A stretch of 64,000 nucleotides of DNA from a virus, in UHGV virus genome UHGV-2031204; one strand, written 5' to 3'. Shown piece by piece: positions 570-59,405 of this stretch. The stretch's first letter is position 1. Each line of letters opens with the position of its first letter. Both the position numbers and the translations under genes were made by a program. The notes beneath the pieces were generated by a model. That model was not told the origin of the DNA. It was given only the letters and a program-made list of their open reading frames with translations, and searched no databases.

Positions 570-1424
570 ATGATTGACATTTATACCGATTACGCCGCCG
601 TTCTTACCGTCAATCGTGCGGAAGAACGTGCTGCGCCTTTCCTGGACTTAGTAACGCTGTGCATGGATTACGGTTACGATGTTGCGTTAAGCGATGTGTA
701 TTGGCAACCGTCGTCTGATCCTGCCGACGAAACAGTAAGACTGGAAGGGATTATTGTAAAATGCGCCGTGGCGTTAGGCAACCGTTTAGGCGTTGCTTTA
801 AACCCACAAGAAGTTTTCCGTAAACCGAAAGAGACCGTACGTATTCTAGATGGTATTACGTCTAAATTCGAAGAGTTCGAAGACACTGATACGTTATACG
901 GTCTCGTGATGTCTGGAGAAACGCCAGAGTTTATCCTGGAAAGTATCTGCCGTTACGTATACGGTGATGACAATATCCATTTTGAAGATTTGGTCATTCG
1001 TGTTTCACCCCGTGTAATGACGGTGATGCGCAACTATCTTTCAGCTATGGTTGTGGATGAACAGCTTGCTGTAGGTAACGATGCGCGTCTGACGCGTATT
1101 GCAGAATACTTGCGTCTTTATCCGCAAAACCCTTCTGCGTTCGTATTCCTAAACCTACCTGAAGATCCCGATTTGACGGTTGTCCAACAATCGTTAGTGT
1201 TTGACGTCGAAGATTACAGCGAAACAGAATTACTCGAGATGTATACGGTAGGGCTTTCGATTATCGATAACGATGACTTCGATGACGCGTATGCCGATCT
1301 TTCGACGAACTTAGAGAAACTTAATAATGATGGGTTACAACCCATTACTGTTTTACAACCTGCATTAAAAAGCCTACGGCTGATTTATCAGGTTGAGGAG
1401 GCAGAGCACGATGACGAGGTTTGA
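570..1424 (+). CDS. hypothetical protein
   Basis: Long ORF; ATG at 570 preceded by ggaaaagg; the track start at 558 is a TTG. Confidence 0.75.
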   Translation: MIDIYTDYAAVLTVNRAEERAAPFLDLVTLCMDYGYDVALSDVYWQPSSDPADETVRLEGIIVKCAVALGNRLGVALNPQEVFRKPKETVRILDGITSKFEEFEDTDTLYGLVMSGETPEFILESICRYVYGDDNIHFEDLVIRVSPRVMTVMRNYLSAMVVDEQLAVGNDARLTRIAEYLRLYPQNPSAFVFLNLPEDPDLTVVQQSLVFDVEDYSETELLEMYTVGLSIIDNDDFDDAYADLSTNLEKLNNDGLQPITVLQPALKSLRLIYQVEEAEHDDEV

Positions 1425-2712
1425 GTTCTTAGTAGCGGCATGTAAAGCAGAGGCATGGCGACGTCTGGTCTGGCGCATTGCTATTTTTAACATGTCGGTA
1501 TTTCCAACAGGGCGCGAAGAACCCGAAGCGTTTGATATAACGTATATCGACGGCTTACCGCATTATTACGCTGTAGAAGACGGCAAGGGCAGTTGGGAAC
1601 CGATTACTGACGGCGTAAAGGACCAGGAGCTGTTTGTCCCTGAAGAACAGTTCGAGCTACGCCCTGACGATTATCCCGGTTTAGACGGTCCTATTCCCAC
1701 GACAGTAGGACGATACGTTTTTAACTGGATTGTTATCTGGTATGCATTTGGTACACGCTTACCCTATCTGGCGATTTCACAAAACCCGTTGGAATATCGC
1801 AAAGAGATGCATCGGCGTTGTTTAGACCATGAAACCGATGAGCCAGAAAACGAAGGTGCAATTCGACCGAGTATGATTGAGCGCTTTGTAAGCGGTTTAC
1901 ACGAACTCGCGCCACTTACGTCAGGGATTGCACCAACCGGTACGTTACGAAGTCTCACAGTGCATCCTGATGCGTATAAAATCCGCGATGCGTTACTGTT
2001 GAAGCACAAAGACGAGTTAGACGATCCTGCCGTTATCGTTAAGATTGAAAAAGCGTTGGATGAGTTAGACAAAGAATGGTTGTCGGGTGACCAATCTATT
2101 GAGTTTTATAACTCGCCGAAATCGCGGATGCGTCGACGTAAATTAATGCTGATGTACGGTATCGAATCGTCTTTTCAGGAAGGGGGTCATTACACGCTCA
2201 TTCCGAACGCGTTAGTTGAAGTTGATAAGGCGGGGATGGAAAACCTGGTTGCGAAATTCAACTCTATCCGTGAAGGTTCATTCTCTCGTGGTGCGGAAAC
2301 AGCGAAAGGGGGTGAGCAGGTACGTATTATCCAGATGATTTTCCAGAACCACCGAATCGTCCCTGGTGACTGCGGAACGAAACTAACGTACCCGGTTGTG
2401 ATTACCGAAGATAACGTAAAACGTTACGTTGGGATGAATGCGATGGTTAATGGTAAACTGACACCATTGACTGAGGAATATTTAAAACAACAGTTAGGTA
2501 AGGTGGTGCGGTTACGCCGACCCATCTTATGTCAGTATGGCCACATCGACACCTGCACAGCGTGTTCGTCTGCGAATAAAGGGGAAGAACCTCGCGCAAT
2601 CGCTGCGGATATATCCTCGGCGTTCTCTAACGTTATGTCCGTGGCAATGGCCGCGATGCATGGTAAAGAGACAGTGGTACACGAATTTAATCCATCGATC
2701 CACATTACGTAA
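1411..2712 (+). CDS. hypothetical protein
   Basis: 433-aa ORF; ATG at 1411 preceded by gaggagg; overlaps the upstream gene by 14 nt. Confidence 0.8.
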   Translation: MTRFEFLVAACKAEAWRRLVWRIAIFNMSVFPTGREEPEAFDITYIDGLPHYYAVEDGKGSWEPITDGVKDQELFVPEEQFELRPDDYPGLDGPIPTTVGRYVFNWIVIWYAFGTRLPYLAISQNPLEYRKEMHRRCLDHETDEPENEGAIRPSMIERFVSGLHELAPLTSGIAPTGTLRSLTVHPDAYKIRDALLLKHKDELDDPAVIVKIEKALDELDKEWLSGDQSIEFYNSPKSRMRRRKLMLMYGIESSFQEGGHYTLIPNALVEVDKAGMENLVAKFNSIREGSFSRGAETAKGGEQVRIIQMIFQNHRIVPGDCGTKLTYPVVITEDNVKRYVGMNAMVNGKLTPLTEEYLKQQLGKVVRLRRPILCQYGHIDTCTACSSANKGEEPRAIAADISSAFSNVMSVAMAAMHGKETVVHEFNPSIHIT

Positions 2713-18231: not shown

Positions 18232-18249
18232 TCCCTGATTGTTTAGTAA

Positions 18250-18297
18250 GAGAACCACCCTGTAATGGGGTGGTTCTCTCTTTTCTTTTTTTTTCGA
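18250..18297 (+). terminator. intrinsic terminator
   Basis: agagaaccaccctgtaatggggtggttctct followed by a long T-run. Confidence 0.75.
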
Positions 18298-18310
18298 TTA
18301 AAATAATTTT

Positions 18311-18334
18311 CAGATATATATTACCTAGGTGAGA
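18311..18334 (+). promoter_or_regulatory. conserved promoter-like motif, copy 1 (cagatatatattacctaggtgaga)
   Basis: Identical 24-mer recurs at 26567 and, with 2 mismatches, at 54090; always just after a terminator and about 50 nt before a start codon; followed by an inverted repeat gagattac/gtaatctc. Confidence 0.55.
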
Positions 18335-18384
18335 TTACACAGTAATCTCTTTACGACTTGTTTATTACGTTTAGGAGAAATATC

Positions 18385-19026
18385 ATGAGCCGCATTAATT
18401 TAACTGATTTTGTTGATGGTGTTGTGTCTACGGATAAAGGTGTTGTTACGATGGTGGCACCGAATAGTAAAGTTGTTACTTTAAATCCGGTAGAACTGAT
18501 TTCTATTTCTACCTGGTTGCGCTTACTTTCTGGTAAGAAACCTAAAGACCAAGCGAAGGGTGGCCTATTAGTTGGTACACGTGAGTTTGTTTTCAAAGAC
18601 ATAACCCAAGATAAACTGGACAGCATTGCTAAAGAACTGAACGGCAAGCATAAAACTCGCGACATCGGGTGTGCCGAATATGACGGAGTAACGTACCATG
18701 CGTTTCTTGATAGTCACGTAGCATTGCGTGAAAAAGAAAATGGGATGTACGATTCAGTTTGTTTCTTTCACTTAATCGCACCAACAGAAAACGAAGCTGT
18801 GTATGAAACCGTTGAAAAATCGGCGGAAGCTGTTATGGAAACGGTGTCAGAACTTATAGAAGGGATGAAAAGAATCCCACGTGTGTTGAAAGTTACTGAT
18901 GGGGCTTTCGATTGTTTTAAATTATTACCCCTAATAGCTAGTAAAGAATACGAAGATGAGAACACCTTCGGACTATTCGAAATTAGTCTTTCGGAAGCAG
19001 TTGTTACTTTCTTTGAAGATTTATGA
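18385..19026 (+). CDS. hypothetical protein
   Basis: 213-aa ORF; ATG at 18385 preceded by ttaggagaaa; the track start at 18358 lacks an RBS. Confidence 0.8.
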   Translation: MSRINLTDFVDGVVSTDKGVVTMVAPNSKVVTLNPVELISISTWLRLLSGKKPKDQAKGGLLVGTREFVFKDITQDKLDSIAKELNGKHKTRDIGCAEYDGVTYHAFLDSHVALREKENGMYDSVCFFHLIAPTENEAVYETVEKSAEAVMETVSELIEGMKRIPRVLKVTDGAFDCFKLLPLIASKEYEDENTFGLFEISLSEAVVTFFEDL

Positions 19027-26401: not shown

Positions 26402-26407
26402 AAACTT

Positions 26408-26447
26408 CCCGTTACCTCTATGGGTAACGGGAATACCTTTTATTTAT
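26408..26447 (+). terminator. intrinsic terminator
   Basis: cccgttacctctatgggtaacggg followed by a T-rich tract. Confidence 0.7.
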
Positions 26448-26566
26448 TCCTAAACGACACGCAGAAGTCATTTAACCGTTAAGACGACTAATTACCCTTT
26501 AAAAAGAAAATTGCGTCAGAATGCGTTTTAGAGCGTTCTAGAGGGTATATGGATTCAAAAAGATTT

Positions 26567-26590
26567 CAGATATATATTACCTAGGTGAGA
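26567..26590 (+). promoter_or_regulatory. conserved promoter-like motif, copy 2 (cagatatatattacctaggtgaga)
   Basis: Exact copy of the 18311 24-mer, about 45 nt upstream of the small ORF at 26637. Confidence 0.55.
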
Positions 26591-26636
26591 GTTTACGTAA
26601 TACTCATTTATCGAATACCTAATTAGGAGTTATATC

Positions 26637-26780
26637 ATGATTTCTGTAAAACACAAAAAAGCTATCTTCGCTGTTGTTATCGCTGTTGTTCTGGGTTGCC
26701 TGTATCTGGACATCGACAAAGGCTACGACACTTGCATCGACAACGGTAATTCCGTTGCACAGTGCACTGGTCGTGGTTAA
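26637..26780 (+). CDS. small membrane protein (47 aa, one predicted TM helix, Cys-containing C-terminus)
   Basis: Below the ORF-track size cutoff. RBS ttaggag before ATG; strongly optimised codons; hydrophobic AIFAVVIAVVLGCLYL; bracketed by promoter-like motif and terminator. Confidence 0.6.
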   Translation: MISVKHKKAIFAVVIAVVLGCLYLDIDKGYDTCIDNGNSVAQCTGRG

Positions 26781-28650: not shown

Positions 28651-30213
28651 TCAAAAGAGTTCGTCACCCATGCCGCCGGTAAATACGTTAATCGACGAGG
28701 CTGTTACAGTTTCTTCTTTATCACAATCCCATGGCAAAATGCCAACATCACGGAAAGGTATTACAGTATAATGATAAGCTTCTTTGGTATCAATAATGGT
28801 ACGGTGTTTACCGCGTTGTACTTCTAAATAGCTGTGTCCGCTGACGACACGTTTGTTAAAATACATCTCACCGTCAGCTTCGTTGTCTAAGCTAGAGCAG
28901 TTGTCGTAAAGACCACGACCAGGTAAGCTCTTACAGAAACTTGCTGGGTCGAGTGCTTTTAATTTTTTGCCTTCTGGTGAGATTTGGTGTGGTGCTAAGA
29001 GGAAACCACGATTACGTACCACTTGGATGTTTCGCGCGATACGATAAATTTCTTTAATGTCACTACCCGCAATACCGTTACCGTGCCCTGCTTTGCTGAT
29101 AGTACCGAAATAGTCTCCGCGTATTCCAGCTACATGATAACCTCGACGTTTTAGATCTAAAATCAAATCATTCAAATAGTGAATTTTAAAATCGGAGTTT
29201 GTGTGTTTTTGGAAAATATACTCCCAACCGTTTGCCCGCATTTTACTACAGAGGTAATCTGACATTTGTGCATTGTGTAGCGCTTTTTCTTCGTCAGTTG
29301 CCGTTTCAGGTGCAACCATTACCGGAGCTGTACCTTCAAAGTGTCCGTAAAGTGCTTGATACGCGTAAGCCAAGTTAACATCTAATTCGTTTTCTAAACT
29401 TAAATCCAGAATAACCGGTTGTAAGTCACCTTTAACATTTGCCATCACCTTTTCTGGGGTGTTGAATACAGGAATGCTAATAGAGAGCAATAAACTGAAT
29501 AATGACTTACAGTTAAAGGGTAGTGCGGGCATTAGCCAGAGTTCTTCGGTGATCCCTTTGTTACAGCCAAGCATTTGGTTAATTGCTTTCCACCCCGTAC
29601 GTAACCCATTACCTGCCGCTTTCTTACTGATAGAGTCGAATACATGTACGAAGGGTGCTTTATTGTCAGTAATCAATTCCCCTACCAGAGAAGGAATCTT
29701 ATTATGAGAGCGTTCACTGAACGTGGATAAGGTATCCTTAAGGTCGTTGAGCGCCGTTTGTAAATCAACACGCGTTTCAGTGCCGTTCAGTGCGCCTAAC
29801 GTACGACCCAATTTTTGTTTCAGTTGTACGCCTTGAATAGCTTGACGTAACTGAAAGTAGTATTGTGCTACTTGGCGATTAAGATGCTCGATGCGTGCTT
29901 CTGGTTCTTCTGGAATATCATCTTCCAGGAATTTGGTAATCGTATCGTATAGAGGACGTATTTGCGTAGTGGCCAGTTTCAAACGTTTCATGACGTTTGT
30001 GTGGTCGTAAGGCATACCGCCGTCTATGATGGATGTGATGATATCCTTGATTTCGACGAGGGCGGCACGTTCGTCACCTTCTTCTGCGTAATCAGGAAGC
30101 TTAGCCTCTAACAGCACTTTTCTTATGATGTCGTGGTCCTTTTCAGGATCGGTCAGAAGACTTTCAGCGTATAATGTGGCTAAGGCGGTTATCAACATCA
30201 TTTTGTTATTCAT
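28651..30213 (-). CDS. hypothetical protein (520 aa)
   Basis: Long minus-strand ORF; no recognisable catalytic motif found by eye. Confidence 0.8.
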   Translation of the reverse strand: MNNKMMLITALATLYAESLLTDPEKDHDIIRKVLLEAKLPDYAEEGDERAALVEIKDIITSIIDGGMPYDHTNVMKRLKLATTQIRPLYDTITKFLEDDIPEEPEARIEHLNRQVAQYYFQLRQAIQGVQLKQKLGRTLGALNGTETRVDLQTALNDLKDTLSTFSERSHNKIPSLVGELITDNKAPFVHVFDSISKKAAGNGLRTGWKAINQMLGCNKGITEELWLMPALPFNCKSLFSLLLSISIPVFNTPEKVMANVKGDLQPVILDLSLENELDVNLAYAYQALYGHFEGTAPVMVAPETATDEEKALHNAQMSDYLCSKMRANGWEYIFQKHTNSDFKIHYLNDLILDLKRRGYHVAGIRGDYFGTISKAGHGNGIAGSDIKEIYRIARNIQVVRNRGFLLAPHQISPEGKKLKALDPASFCKSLPGRGLYDNCSSLDNEADGEMYFNKRVVSGHSYLEVQRGKHRTIIDTKEAYHYTVIPFRDVGILPWDCDKEETVTASSINVFTGGMGDELF

Positions 30214-33115: not shown

Positions 33116-33240
33116 TCTATTATTTTTTGGATAGATATTATTAAAGGGAGACGGCCAGTTGGTTTTAAAGGAGTATGTATGGAAAAAATACAGTTTAAAC
33201 TAAAGATATGTGTCATCATTAAAATTTAGCTTGGGTTCCC

Positions 33241-34261: not shown

Positions 34262-36037
34262 GTGTTTAAAGATGCAATCAAAAAGCTTAAAGAGAATGGT
34301 AAAATAGTACCCTTTAACCGTGCGATTGCGGAAGGAGTCGGTTATACACAAGCCAAAGATGGTATTCACGATCGTGTACATCGTATCTTGAAACGTGAGC
34401 TAGATTACCATCCTGTAGAGAACCCTCGTGTTCCTGAAGGTTTGGCCGTGTTGGGTGTTCGTTTAATGTCGCCGTTCGAAACTTTTATCTATAAGCTGTC
34501 TCGTTCAGAGAGCAGCAGGATGGATAAGCGTCGTGGGGTGATGTCAATCGCGAATACAGATGCGTATATGGTCATGTCGTCGTTCCGTATTCCTGGAGAC
34601 TCAAGACCAATCTCAAGACCGATTAACTTGCCATTCATTCGTCGTGGTGGGTTGATGAACTATTACGGAACAACGTATCATGTTGCACCTGTTATTCATC
34701 AGCCGGGTATCTGTCGTGAGCACGGCGGGGTGTTTGTTAATTTTGACTTTAAACGTAAAGCGTCATTAAAATTCTGTAAGCACCCGGTACGGATTTTAGT
34801 GAATGGGAAGAAAGAAGAGTTGTTCTTACCCGGAACAAACAATTTGTTTAAAGCCAAAAACGCCACACATCCTGATACGGACGAAAAGCCGTTAATGTAC
34901 TGGCTATTCGGACGTTATGGATTTAAGGAAGCCATCAAACGTTATACCGGCGTGGATGTAGAGATATATCCTGCATTCAAAGTACCTGAAATCGATCTCG
35001 ATAAAAAAGTAGTAATCAGTTCAGGTGAGCCTAAACATAATCGGTCGATTATGTACGTAGTGACGGTTCCTGCAGAGGCTTTACCAAATCTCGATAAAGC
35101 GGGATGGGATCAAAACGAGCACTTATTACTCGTGGCGATTTCTGCATTCTTTAAAGCAGCGCACTATTATTGCGGAAAGCAAGCGATTAAAAACGGCAAC
35201 GTTGTTCCTTTACCGCCGTTGTTTACCGCGATTAACGAACTTGCAATGGAGGACGATGTTGTAAACCTGAATTCCTCCGCAATTTGGCGGGAGATTTTGG
35301 GGAGAAGTATTGTTGGACTTAAACCGTCCGATATTGAACTGGCGCACAGCATGACGAAACACTATACGGAGTGTGAACGCTACGTTAACTCAACATTCCG
35401 TGGTGAGTTAATGATGTCAGATCCCGATATCCCGGACGATATGGATATGTTTGATTTCTTCTGGTACGCGACGAAGTTGATGGTGAGAACGCGCCTTACG
35501 AAACAAGGTGATATTCCGTCAATGTATGGAAAACGTCTGACCGTAACAGATTACCTGTTATTGGGTGAACGTGGCTTTACACCTACCATCGCTGCGATTC
35601 GTTTCCACTTGGGACAAACGGAAAATCGAACACCGGAGTCTTGTGCGAACATGATACGCAGTGCGTTGAATAAAGACATTGTAACCAGCCTGGTATTACG
35701 CAACATTACCGGCAATGGCGGTGTAAGTTATTTCAACGCTTCTACTGAGTCTATGGTGCTGGGGGTTTCAACCCATGCTATCAGCCAGACAGAAACAGAA
35801 TCAAAACGTAACAGCAAGGGCGGTAAGACGGTTAACCTTAATGACCGGACAAAACATGCCTCTGCATCTCATCTGGAATGTGGTAACGTGTATTACATTC
35901 CGAAGTCATCACCGTTCAAATCGGGTATTCTCAATCCGTATATGAAGACGAACACCCAACTGGTGATGGTACGTAATCCAAAACTCAACGAGTTGATCCA
36001 AGCAACCGAAGAAGACATTGCGAAGATTGGCCGTTAA
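34262..36037 (+). CDS. hypothetical protein (591 aa)
   Basis: Long ORF starting at GTG 34262, 6 nt after aaggag. Confidence 0.8.
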   Translation: MFKDAIKKLKENGKIVPFNRAIAEGVGYTQAKDGIHDRVHRILKRELDYHPVENPRVPEGLAVLGVRLMSPFETFIYKLSRSESSRMDKRRGVMSIANTDAYMVMSSFRIPGDSRPISRPINLPFIRRGGLMNYYGTTYHVAPVIHQPGICREHGGVFVNFDFKRKASLKFCKHPVRILVNGKKEELFLPGTNNLFKAKNATHPDTDEKPLMYWLFGRYGFKEAIKRYTGVDVEIYPAFKVPEIDLDKKVVISSGEPKHNRSIMYVVTVPAEALPNLDKAGWDQNEHLLLVAISAFFKAAHYYCGKQAIKNGNVVPLPPLFTAINELAMEDDVVNLNSSAIWREILGRSIVGLKPSDIELAHSMTKHYTECERYVNSTFRGELMMSDPDIPDDMDMFDFFWYATKLMVRTRLTKQGDIPSMYGKRLTVTDYLLLGERGFTPTIAAIRFHLGQTENRTPESCANMIRSALNKDIVTSLVLRNITGNGGVSYFNASTESMVLGVSTHAISQTETESKRNSKGGKTVNLNDRTKHASASHLECGNVYYIPKSSPFKSGILNPYMKTNTQLVMVRNPKLNELIQATEEDIAKIGR

Positions 36038-46767: not shown

Positions 46768-47243
46768 TGCAGCAGTTAGATATTACCGAAGACAAAATTT
46801 CCGCTAAATTTCCTGAATTACGTGAATACGTCAAAGACTTAAATTCGATTCGGGAAACGCCAGTTAGAATCACGTTGGCTGTTGAAGACGATATTACACA
46901 TGGGGTTGCAATCTGGGAGCCGGGGAATCTTATCTATCTGGTAGTGGCCGAAGGTTCTCGTCGTAGCGGTGTAGGTTCCTTTTTACTGAAATACGTTCAA
47001 CTTAATTCAGATCGTCAAATGGTGATGTGTCGTGTCCATCCCTCAAACATAGACGGGCTGTGTTTCTTTTCCAAAAAAGGCTTCCAAATAGACCGATGGT
47101 TTATTGCCAGTGACTCCCGTCGGTATTTTCGTATGACGAACAGTAACGTTGATTCGTCATACGCCCCGCCGGAAGAAGGATATTTGGTGGATTTTATTGA
47201 AAACACCCCCATCTTTCTCTCTGTTGCGGATAAGATTTATTAG
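46767..47243 (+). CDS. putative GNAT-family acetyltransferase
   Basis: IYLVVAEGSRRSGVGSFLLKYVQ resembles GNAT motif A (R-x-x-G-x-G), at the usual position in a ~160-aa protein. Confidence 0.5.
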   Translation: MQQLDITEDKISAKFPELREYVKDLNSIRETPVRITLAVEDDITHGVAIWEPGNLIYLVVAEGSRRSGVGSFLLKYVQLNSDRQMVMCRVHPSNIDGLCFFSKKGFQIDRWFIASDSRRYFRMTNSNVDSSYAPPEEGYLVDFIENTPIFLSVADKIY

Positions 47244-52654: not shown

Positions 52655-52742
52655 ACCCTAAATTTTATTACAGATTGATATTATCAATGTGACAACCGTA
52701 GTGAGTCGGTAACTCACCAATTTAAAAAAAGAGAGATAAATT

Positions 52743-54043: not shown

Positions 54044-54050
54044 CCGCTTA

Positions 54051-54088
54051 GGTACCACCCAACGGTGGTACCTATATTTTATTTTTTC
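54051..54088 (+). terminator. intrinsic terminator
   Basis: ggtaccacccaacggtggtacc followed by a T-rich tract. Confidence 0.75.
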
Positions 54089-54089
54089 T

Positions 54090-54113
54090 CAGATATATTT
54101 TACTTAGGTGAGA
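54090..54113 (+). promoter_or_regulatory. conserved promoter-like motif, copy 3 (cagatatattttacttaggtgaga)
   Basis: Matches the 18311/26567 24-mer with 2 mismatches; directly after a terminator; followed by inverted repeat agagtta/taactct; about 50 nt before the HTH gene start. Confidence 0.5.
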
Positions 54114-54163
54114 GTTATGATTAACTCTTTACACCGACTTGTTAACCTAAAGGAGTATTTACA

Positions 54164-54523
54164 ATGGCTTACAATCACAATTCCATCGTTCTGGCAAAAC
54201 GTAAATTCGGTCTTCACTTGTCTTACGTAATTCGTCATTTGACCACAAAAGACATTACCCAGCGTGAACTTGCCCAGCTTGCGAAAGTTTCACAACCTGT
54301 TATCTCGTCTATTAAGAACGATCACTCAGAACGTTTAAGTTTACCGATTATGATGAAAGTTGCTGATGCGATTCGTCTGAAATACCAGATTAGTTTTAAT
54401 TCCGTTAAGGGTCGTTGCTCAGTAACCGTTCACGTAGAGTCCGCGTTAGACTACGTTGCAAACACGTCCATTAAACGCACCACGAAGAATGTGCGTTTTA
54501 TCACTAACACCGCAACACACTAA
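54164..54523 (+). CDS. XRE-family helix-turn-helix DNA-binding protein (putative transcriptional regulator)
   Basis: ITQRELAQLAKVSQPVISSIKNDHSE fits the Cro/C1-type HTH pattern (Q-x-x-LA-x-x-x-x-VS-x-x-x-IS-x-x-E). Confidence 0.55.
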   Translation: MAYNHNSIVLAKRKFGLHLSYVIRHLTTKDITQRELAQLAKVSQPVISSIKNDHSERLSLPIMMKVADAIRLKYQISFNSVKGRCSVTVHVESALDYVANTSIKRTTKNVRFITNTATH

Positions 54524-57106: not shown

Positions 57107-57879
57107 TGCGCATAGTGGATATCCACGATTATCGTAATGACCATTTAGCAATTGGTGTGGACGGGAAAATGGTTTCACTAACCCGTGTACGGAAAGGGTT
57201 ATTGGAAAAGGACGTCATACGCGAGTCTGAAGACCCGACCTTTATCATTCTTTCGAACACGAATCAGCTACAAGGAATCTTCTCCGGTCGTGTCGATGGT
57301 AAGTTTTTCTACATGTCGGCAATCGTTGTGTTTGCGAAGAAGAAAATTAATTTCGCACAACTCAAACGTTTGTTAAAAGTGGAGATGTTTGATGTCACAT
57401 ACCCTGCCAATGACCTAAAACGTCGTGACCAGTTAATGGTGTATTTGGGTATGCAGCCGACGTCCATCGACTATGACCTGACGTTTACTGAAGAACCCGA
57501 AGTTCGCACCGATTTACCTGATGTAGTTGATATTGAATCTCTAACGTTAGAAGAAACGTTTACGATCCCTAAGGTGGTTAATGTCAGTTTGGATACATAC
57601 TGCCTGGGATTGTTAGCTATTGGGGCTGCTGAGGGGCTGTGCTGTCGTAAAGACGGTAAAGTTGAAGGTATCTTAGTCTATTCGAAAATCAACGAAAAGA
57701 CGTTTGCAACCGAAGGTTTCTTCTATAACGACTGTACATACGGGATTGCGCTCTTGACCACATACTACCGTATTGCGTATTTAAAGGGTGCATCCGTGCG
57801 TCTTACTTTTCCATACTCAGCACCTCCAGCAATGTCTGGTGTTGAAGTAGAAGCATTAACTGGCCATTTTATCTTTTAA
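57106..57879 (+). CDS. hypothetical protein
   Basis: 257-aa ORF; start overlaps the dam stop. Confidence 0.8.
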   Translation: MRIVDIHDYRNDHLAIGVDGKMVSLTRVRKGLLEKDVIRESEDPTFIILSNTNQLQGIFSGRVDGKFFYMSAIVVFAKKKINFAQLKRLLKVEMFDVTYPANDLKRRDQLMVYLGMQPTSIDYDLTFTEEPEVRTDLPDVVDIESLTLEETFTIPKVVNVSLDTYCLGLLAIGAAEGLCCRKDGKVEGILVYSKINEKTFATEGFFYNDCTYGIALLTTYYRIAYLKGASVRLTFPYSAPPAMSGVEVEALTGHFIF

Positions 57880-59380: not shown

Positions 59381-59405
59381 TAAGATATATTTCATCTATG
59401 TGAGA
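59381..59405 (+). promoter_or_regulatory. degenerate copy of the promoter-like motif, overlapping a perfect palindrome
   Basis: taagatatatttcatctatgtgaga shares the GATATAT and GTGAGA blocks; GTGAGAATTCTCAC (59398-59411) is a perfect 14-bp palindrome; about 30 nt before the ATG at 59437. Confidence 0.35.

Follow-up and report, generated by a model that had tools for sequence, protein, structure and literature searches.

A recurrent early-promoter-like element joined to a putative 5'-terminal stem-loop in a phiKZ-related jumbo phage

Introduction

The virus genome UHGV-2031204, of which a stretch of 64,000 nucleotides (hereafter, the window) was analysed, contains a 24-nt sequence that recurs ahead of three genes and in each case runs into an inverted repeat shortly before the start codon. 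Such an arrangement raises the question of what reads the repeated block and whether the adjoining repeat acts in the DNA or in the transcript. The initial annotation noted that the block is longer than a sigma70 -10/-35 pair and proposed a phage-encoded polymerase, a sigma-like factor or a phage-specific regulator as the reader. Here, we address these possibilities by placing the three copies in the context of related phages and of experimentally mapped phage promoters.

Results and discussion

The window is part of a phiKZ-related jumbo phage genome

Profile searches identified in the window a phiKZ-type major capsid protein (PF25620, E=3e-209), and internal head proteins and a DNA polymerase are encoded as well. 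The window is collinear with the ~38-103 kb region of Salmonella phage SPN3US, and an uncultivated IMG/VR contig (220,786 bp) shares 96% identity with it across 13 kb. Two genes are of relevance as trans-acting context:

1393-2712, plus strand: RNA polymerase (RNAP) beta-like subunit gene, 74% identity to SPN3US ACQ60_gp224
34262-36037, plus strand: PHIKZ123 homologue (7ogp_E, E=4e-18; phrog_2943)

ACQ60_gp224 is annotated as 'RNA polymerase beta subunit', an annotation carried by eight SPN3US genes and the only RNA-polymerase annotation type in that genome. A sequence search for relatives of the 1393-2712 product with a solved structure returned none; this product would correspond to gp42, reportedly a virion RNAP subunit, if the original gp number equals 266 minus the tag number. 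PHIKZ123 is among the subunits of the phiKZ non-virion RNAP, the structure of which has been solved. The window thus carries split beta/beta'-like multisubunit RNAP genes of the phiKZ type, and the major capsid protein, the PHIKZ123 homologue, the RNAP beta-like subunit and the collinearity with SPN3US together identify it as part of a phiKZ-related jumbo phage. In phages of this group, a virion RNAP (vRNAP) transcribes the early genes and a non-virion RNAP (nvRNAP) the later ones (PMC7598289).

Three copies of the element and their surroundings

The 24-mer CAGATATATATTACCTAGGTGAGA has exact copies at 18311-18334 and 26567-26590 and a copy with two mismatches (T at -11 and T at -6 relative to the predicted transcription start) at 54090-54113, all on the plus strand. 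With up to three mismatches allowed, these are the only matches in the window, compared to 0.00 expected from 100 dinucleotide-preserving shuffles. The features of the three loci are as follows:

18249-18294, plus strand: intrinsic terminator of the internal-head-protein gene, 14-bp stem and T-run, ending right before copy 1
18297-18336, plus strand: copy 1, full putative promoter element, -34 to +6, containing the 24-mer at 18311-18334
18331, plus strand: copy 1, predicted transcription start G+1, a G located 6 nt past the TATATTAC core, as in AR9 and phiKZ
18331-18349, plus strand: copy 1, predicted 5'-terminal stem-loop GAGATTAC-ACA-GTAATCTC, 8 bp, -8.2 kcal/mol
18354-18377, plus strand: copy 1, elements of the 54-nt leader, box variant CGACTTG (18354-18360) and Shine-Dalgarno (SD) sequence AGGAG (18373-18377)
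18385-19026, plus strand: copy 1, downstream gene, 213 aa, N-terminus weakly similar to that of the syntenic SPN3US protein
26553-26592, plus strand: copy 2, full putative promoter element, -34 to +6, 24-mer at 26567-26590, predicted start G26587
26589-26605, plus strand: copy 2, weaker predicted 5' stem-loop, GAGT...ACTC around a TTACGTAA core, from +3, -2.7 kcal/mol
26611-26629, plus strand: copy 2, elements of the 50-nt leader, box variant TCGAATAC (26611-26618) and SD AGGAG (26625-26629)
26637-26780, plus strand: copy 2, downstream 47-aa ORF, phrog_8574
54049-54087, plus strand: intrinsic terminator directly before copy 3, 11-bp stem and T-run
54076-54115, plus strand: copy 3, full putative promoter element, -34 to +6, 24-mer at 54090-54113, predicted start G54110
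54110-54129, plus strand: copy 3, predicted 5'-terminal stem-loop GAGAGTTA-TGAT-TAACTCTT, 8 bp with G.U at +1, -7.5 kcal/mol
54135-54155, plus strand: copy 3, elements of the 54-nt leader, box CGACTTG (54135-54141) and SD AAGGAG (54150-54155)
54164-54523, plus strand: copy 3, downstream helix-turn-helix (HTH) gene, 119 aa, PF13744/PF01381

The distances between the motif end and the ATG (at 18385, 26637 and 54164) are 50, 46 and 50 nt, in agreement with the spacing originally described. Likewise, the inverted repeats reported at 18331-18349 (GAGATTAC/GTAATCTC) and 54111-54128 (AGAGTTA/TAACTCT) are located as described, and the assertion that each copy possesses one extends to copy 2, in which the hairpin (26589-26605), not listed earlier, is weaker and begins at +3. 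The upstream context tttCAGATAT, regarded as common to all copies, is shared overall, except that 'ttt' reads 'tct' in copy 3. The placement of each copy directly after a terminator is true of copies 1 and 3 (stems at 18249-18279 and 54049-54074) and fails for copy 2, for which the nearest terminator stem (26406-26433) ends ~133 nt upstream of the motif. In a crude scan of the wider family described below, a strong terminator lies within 140 nt of the motif in 15 of 42 copies; terminator adjacency is thus frequent and is no rule. The ~130-nt spacer between this terminator and copy 2 (26434-26566) contains no ORF and holds the sequence GACGACTAATTACC, which resembles the leader box.

The downstream genes are those given in the initial annotation, namely a 213-aa protein without a family match (no PHROG or Pfam profile matched it), a 47-aa protein with a hydrophobic, lipobox-like N-terminus and a 119-aa HTH protein. 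The 47-aa ORF begins with MISVKHKKAIFAVVIAVVLGC, its hydrophobic N-terminus closes with a lipobox-like LGC, and it is conserved, belonging to phrog_8574 and corresponding to SPN3US ACQ60_gp200. The product is possibly a small lipoprotein made early; a part in superinfection exclusion would be a guess.

Conservation and synteny of the element

The motif region matches six to eight unannotated intergenic places per genome in jumbo phages of Salmonella, Erwinia, Escherichia and Proteus. A scan of viral contigs with the exact 17-nt core yielded 82 loci, of which ~45 are true members, residing in contigs of 220-246 kb; the remaining half or so fall into coding sequences of unrelated phages and were dropped by context. 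Because the family was gathered with an exact 17-mer, positions -15 to +2 are invariant by ascertainment, and evidence independent of the search pattern is confined to the flanks, the synteny and the three copies of the window itself. Outside the pattern, A-34 is retained in 41, T-32 in 40, A-29 in 42, T-23 in 41, T-21 in 42 and C-20 in 36 of the 42 unique copies, and G+3, A+4 and T+6 are conserved as well. Given this conservation beyond the search pattern, the element spans approximately -34 to +6, so that the conserved block is longer than the 24 nt first proposed.

All three window copies are syntenic with SPN3US sites, being located past the internal head protein gene, before the 47-aa ORF and before the HTH gene, respectively. 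All 24 positions of the 24-mer are unchanged at the first of them, whereas the downstream proteins are only 30% identical over 88 aa. In 39 of the 42 unique copies, an SD sequence and a start codon follow on the same strand, 37-64 nt past the predicted start. The flanking structural genes lack the motif.

In SPN3US, approximately 7-8 sites of the hairpin-bearing type (class A) and ~15 sites with a looser motif (class B) could be distinguished, nearly all on the coding strand; one of the class B sites, at 29014, precedes RNAP genes. The 14-nt core, at up to two mismatches, has seven matches in the window, all on the plus strand, compared to 1.1 expected; the match at 46774, within a coding sequence, is probably due to chance. 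Class B relatives in the window, all on the plus strand, lie at 33129-33149 (GGATAGATATTATT...), 52672-52692 (AGATTGATATTATC...) and 59383-59403 (AGATATATTTCATC...), in intergenic positions upstream of ORFs and mostly without a hairpin at +1. Within class B, the core AGATA-GATAT-TATCT forms an inverted repeat of its own. At two SPN3US loci, 15614(+)/15632(-) and 191602(+)/191620(-), class B sequences are found on both strands between divergent gene pairs, at plausible leader distances from each gene, and may represent bidirectional promoters. The class B leaders at SPN3US 92540 and 109893 have in common a short element, AAATTTACGTTTCA, right past the predicted start.

A full-text literature search with the motif strings returned nothing relevant, and the SPFM jumbo-phage genomics paper makes no mention of promoters. 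A literature search for transcript and polymerase-binding data on SPN3US-like phages likewise yielded none.

The element matches mapped early promoters of AR9 and phiKZ

All RNAP-encoding jumbo phages share a conserved AT-rich motif, centred at approximately -10, upstream of early operons, which has been confirmed as an early promoter wherever transcripts were profiled (PMC7598289). In AR9, the early consensus is AAATATATATTAT-(6N)-G+1, and in phiKZ and phiR1-37 transcription likewise starts 6 nt downstream of the core (PMC5312081). Conservation around -10, -20 and -30 has been described for phiKZ and 201phi2-1 (PMC11512511), and the extent of the present element agrees with it.

In the window, the motif has the layout AGATATATATTAC-CTAGGT-G, with the core at -19 to -7 and a single A>T change in copy 3. 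A matrix derived from 37 AR9 early promoters that had been mapped experimentally (Table S2) gave the 42 unique family copies a score of +9.1 bits at offset 0 and of at most -9.9 bits at all other offsets between -8 and +8. The AR9 and family consensuses have in common TT.AA at -34 to -30, the core, T-1 and G+1; within the core, 11 of 13 positions are identical in register, and both also carry (cgt)ATTAAAA upstream, at approximately -35/-29. Within the initial 50 kb of the phiKZ genome, TATATTAC is present at seven sites, all on the plus strand and upstream of ORFs, including PHIKZ054, for which an early promoter has been reported, and each of these sites has a G 6 nt past the core. On account of this register match to AR9 and phiKZ, the predicted starts are G18331, G26587 and G54110; each is preceded by T-1, as in AR9, and across the family the 5' edge of the hairpin coincides with this position.

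The resemblance to the phiKZ early promoters includes, besides the TATATTAC-(6N)-G core and its spacing, the A/T-rich upstream region, the split beta/beta' RNAPs and the presence of multiple co-oriented intergenic copies before small early genes. The window phage and its relatives differ from phiKZ in that the 6-nt spacer CyTAGGT and positions +2 to +6 are nearly fixed and the core is extended 5' to AGATA. They differ from AR9 in that the AR9 spacer is not conserved and many AR9 early leaders, at 26-34 nt, are too short for a cassette of hairpin, box and SD; furthermore, AR9 has uracil-containing DNA and a Gram-positive host (PMC7598289, PMC5312081). Single-subunit RNAP promoters of the T7 type (-17 to +6) also consist of a long, near-invariant block that extends through the start and is repeated genome-wide, but there is no sequence similarity, and the polymerase genes in the window are of the multisubunit beta/beta'-like kind.

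The RNAP genes, the AR9 register match and the phiKZ-type TATATTAC-(6N)-G architecture all support the phage-encoded polymerase among the readers suggested at the outset, and the motif is most probably a promoter of the early (virion) RNAP of the phage. This promoter class is already known, and bioinformatic predictions of the early motif reportedly cover every RNAP-encoding jumbo phage (PMC7598289); the present motif would be a further member.

Other readers of the element

The second phage polymerase deserves consideration, given that both RNAPs are phage-encoded, that the class was assigned by analogy only and that the looser class B motif precedes other genes; the element could then be a middle or late promoter read by nvRNAP. 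However, the known nvRNAP promoters have different motifs, namely TATG at the start for phiKZ late genes, AACA-(6N)-TA/G in AR9 and TACT at approximately -22 for phiKZ middle genes (PMC7598289, PMC5312081), whereas sequence and register of the present element fit the early promoters of AR9 and phiKZ. In addition, small uncharacterised proteins and a regulator, as found downstream, are typical of early genes, and the motif is missing from the flanking structural genes. Reading by nvRNAP is thus quite unlikely.

Promoters of the host sigma-70 type consist of a -35 TTGACA and a -10 TATAAT separated by 16-18 nt, and their conservation is limited to these hexamers. Host RNAP could take TATATT, located at -14 to -9 and hence at the right distance to G+1, for a -10 box with a weak -35, and some copies in Erwinia phages do have TTGATT 17 nt upstream. 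Nevertheless, a simple consensus scan flagged none of the three sites, and the -35 region fits TTGACA at only ~2-4 of 6 positions. A sigma-70 promoter would also leave unexplained the near-invariant A-8 C-7 y T A G G T G+1 A+2 and the conserved +3, +4 and +6 positions, and it would not account for a core in register with mapped vRNAP promoters. Moreover, the development of phiKZ-type phages is independent of the host RNAP, according to the title of Ceyssens 2014 (cited in PMC7598289). We consider a host-type promoter very unlikely as the explanation, although weak use of the sites by host RNAP is conceivable in view of the TATATT and TTGATT boxes.

The regulator hypothesis rests on ACCTAGGT, a perfect 8-bp palindrome in copies 1 and 2, on which a dimeric phage protein might bind, for instance, the HTH protein encoded downstream of copy 3. 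The dyad is not maintained, which disfavours an operator: of the 42 copies, 24 have C and 18 have T at position -6, while the symmetric G-3 never changes, and the palindrome is broken precisely in copy 3, in front of the HTH gene itself. Conservation is asymmetric across ~40 nt and always has the orientation of the downstream gene, and phiKZ and AR9 have the core without the palindrome. Accordingly, the suggestion of a phage-specific regulator as the reader finds little favour, and an operator is highly improbable as the explanation of the motif, although a regulator overlapping the promoter is compatible with these observations.

A hairpin at the predicted 5' end

Most copies have a 7-9 bp hairpin that begins at the predicted +1 and the arms of which differ between copies. 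Across 38 non-redundant 5' ends, the mean minimum free energy of +1 to +28 is -5.59 kcal/mol, compared to -1.66 ± 0.25 for shuffled sequences. Chimeras in which 5' arms were swapped between copies fold with a mean of -3.01 ± 0.29 kcal/mol, and none of 300 reached the observed -5.59; because the chimeras fall short, the pairing involves more than the common GAGA...TCTC. At offset 0, 79% of the copies have their first base paired, compared to 29% at -1 and 18% at -4, and the windows flanking the hairpin fold at only -0.3 to -1.2 kcal/mol.

RNAalifold detected no structure in a MAFFT alignment of 30 5' ends, as a result of hairpins with differing loop lengths being aligned without gaps. We therefore turned to an Infernal covariance model, which was built from seven copies of a single geometry and with which 50 matches were aligned. 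In this alignment, 92.6% of the cells pair, versus 74.5% in shuffled controls (0/500), double-change cells number 58 versus 20 (0/500) and covariation is scored at 0.307 versus 0.112 (0/500), with values of at most 0.04 in all slid controls; pair 1 joins G+1 to U (34) or C (11). An alignment fitted to a structure is biased towards it, and the chimera test is free of this bias. A search against Rfam produced no match at gathering scores anywhere in the window.

In 32 of 37 copies, folding is more favourable for the sense than for the antisense strand (p=1.3e-5), a bias indicative of the transcript or, in formal terms, of the non-template DNA strand. Together, the sense-strand bias, the covariation and the start at +1 suggest that the hairpin exists as RNA, and we regard its formation in the transcript as probable. 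The strand bias by itself cannot separate RNA from DNA because the non-template strand equals the RNA sequence. This bears on a different scenario, in which the hairpin would form in DNA for promoter recognition and the true start would lie downstream of it. The vRNAP of phage N4 recognises DNA hairpins with a 5-7 bp stem and a 3-nt loop, upstream of the start. In the present family, however, the hairpin is downstream of the position aligned to the mapped +1 of AR9 and phiKZ, its loops vary from 3 to 11 nt, and as many as 28 of 244 pairs are of the G.U(T) type. Furthermore, it is missing at five of the seven phiKZ sites with the core and from most class B sites of SPN3US, indicating that it is not needed for recognition of the core. 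An N4-like DNA hairpin is accordingly an extremely improbable reading.

The same distribution shows that the hairpin is not general to the vRNAP early promoter class: it is present at +1 at two of the seven sampled phiKZ sites versus ~80-90% of the copies in this clade. The literature searched on phiKZ, 201phi2-1 and AR9 contains no description of such a hairpin leader module, and the fused +1 hairpin leader is possibly a clade-specific addition not described before.

The hairpin is followed in most copies by TCTTTT or TTTA, which brings up the possibility of an attenuator or premature terminator that makes short leader RNAs, reminiscent of the many premature terminations in phiKZ 5' UTRs that give rise to abundant short RNAs (PMC10914365). 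One SPN3US site (165686-165760) has a perfect class A promoter and hairpin, runs into a canonical terminator (GGCTACCTTCGGGTAGCC and a T-run) and has no nearby start codon; this site could produce a ~55-nt small RNA or act as an attenuator. As a general explanation, attenuation is at odds with the short A/U-rich stems (-3 to -9 kcal/mol), which are followed by only 3-5 U, and with their beginning at +1, such that the released RNA would be ~20-25 nt. The fixed ~50-nt leader, with SD and start in 39 of 42 copies, likewise argues that the downstream gene is expressed. Attenuation by the hairpin thus appears unlikely. Two class A copies on IMG/VR contigs of 243-246 kb (L007:216 and L015) stand out by unusually long leaders (103-105 nt), in which TTTT comes after a 9-bp 5' hairpin of -9.8 kcal/mol, the strongest of all.

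Among known RNA elements, the closest parallel is offered by the 5'-terminal stabilising stem-loops of Escherichia coli mRNAs of the ompA type, reportedly described by Emory, Bouvet and Belasco in 1992. Stem-loops of this kind hinder 5'-end-dependent decay and thereby prolong the half-life of the mRNA. The likeness lies in the 0-2 unpaired 5' nucleotides and in a conserved structure with variable arm sequence: given the predicted transcription start, the phage stem-loop would lie 0-2 nt from the RNA 5' end, and structure is kept over sequence. The difference is that the first four bases are here also constrained by the promoter. By analogy, the hairpin might act as a stabiliser, a role that we propose tentatively. 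The PeSL (promoter-early stem-loop) cassettes of T4-type phages, which Arbiol et al. are said to have reported in 2010, are similar in being repeated modules that join a stem-loop or terminator and an early promoter around small early genes. PeSL promoters are of the sigma-70 type, and their stem-loop is reportedly outside the transcript start; by contrast, the copies described here are syntenic between distant relatives and not visibly mobile.

A box in the leader

Between the hairpin and the start codon, 8-20 nt before the SD, the leaders carry a box, aat-CGAC(T/C)AT-ta, represented in the window by CGACTTG or TCGAATAC (18354-18360, 26611-26618 and 54135-54141) and in SPN3US at 57149, 167595, 224200 and other positions. 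In SPN3US, CGACTAT is located right upstream of a start in 8 of its 33 occurrences; for permuted 7-mers, the mean is 1.3 and the maximum 7. A nested second promoter was considered for this box and rejected: the box is also present at intercistronic ribosome-binding regions that lack the motif, and it thus follows translation starts rather than the promoter. It may be a translation-initiation enhancer.

A model of early expression

Direct observations are the family of sequences, its fit in register with mapped promoters, the synteny, and the covariation and strand bias of the hairpin. We infer the identity of the reading polymerase, the start site, the early timing and the role of the hairpin; for vRNAP, the reasoning draws on early, translation-independent transcription in other phages, no vRNAP having been purified by the time of the 2017 AR9 paper. 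According to the model, the multisubunit vRNAP would be injected with the DNA, bind the element and start at G+1 within minutes of infection. Recognition would involve the extended AT-rich core AGATATATATTAC (-19 to -7) and the upstream A/T element ATTAAAA (approximately -34 to -28) and, in this clade, the fixed CyTAGGT spacer in addition. Transcription would begin at 18331, 26587 and 54110, the G six bases past the core. The transcript would open with GAGA, leading immediately into a 7-9 bp stem-loop no more than 2 nt from the 5' end, to be followed by a U-rich tract, a box of the (C/T)GAC(T/C)AT type and the SD sequence, in a leader of ~50 nt. Within this model, the most likely function of the hairpin would be to shield the first messages from 5'-end-dependent decay. 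AR9 early transcripts behave oddly towards terminator exonuclease, possibly having lost the 5' triphosphate (PMC5312081); if such a loss also holds here, which is speculation, a 5' hairpin could be especially useful.

A bolder proposal, to which we assign a low likelihood, is that the class A copies mark separate immediate-early messages in phages of the SPN3US and Erwinia type, with the stem-loop and the leader box forming a dedicated cis-acting RNA signal that would go beyond general stabilisation. If this were true, a phage or host factor could read the signal and thereby control the first vRNAP transcripts, with consequences for the protection, the translation priority or the handling of RNAs made before the phage nucleus.

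Implications

Neither the motif nor the hairpin overturns current understanding. The element provides a map of the genes that would be switched on first in an uncultivated SPN3US-like jumbo phage and extends the rule for vRNAP early promoters, a TATATTAC-type core with the start 6 nt on, to phages that infect Salmonella, Erwinia, Escherichia and Proteus, for which a 40-nt consensus can be given explicitly. These putative promoters would be useful for the annotation of early operons, for engineering and, possibly, for in vitro tests of vRNAP specificity. The covarying 5' hairpin offers a small, testable lead on how phages may protect or mark their earliest messages.
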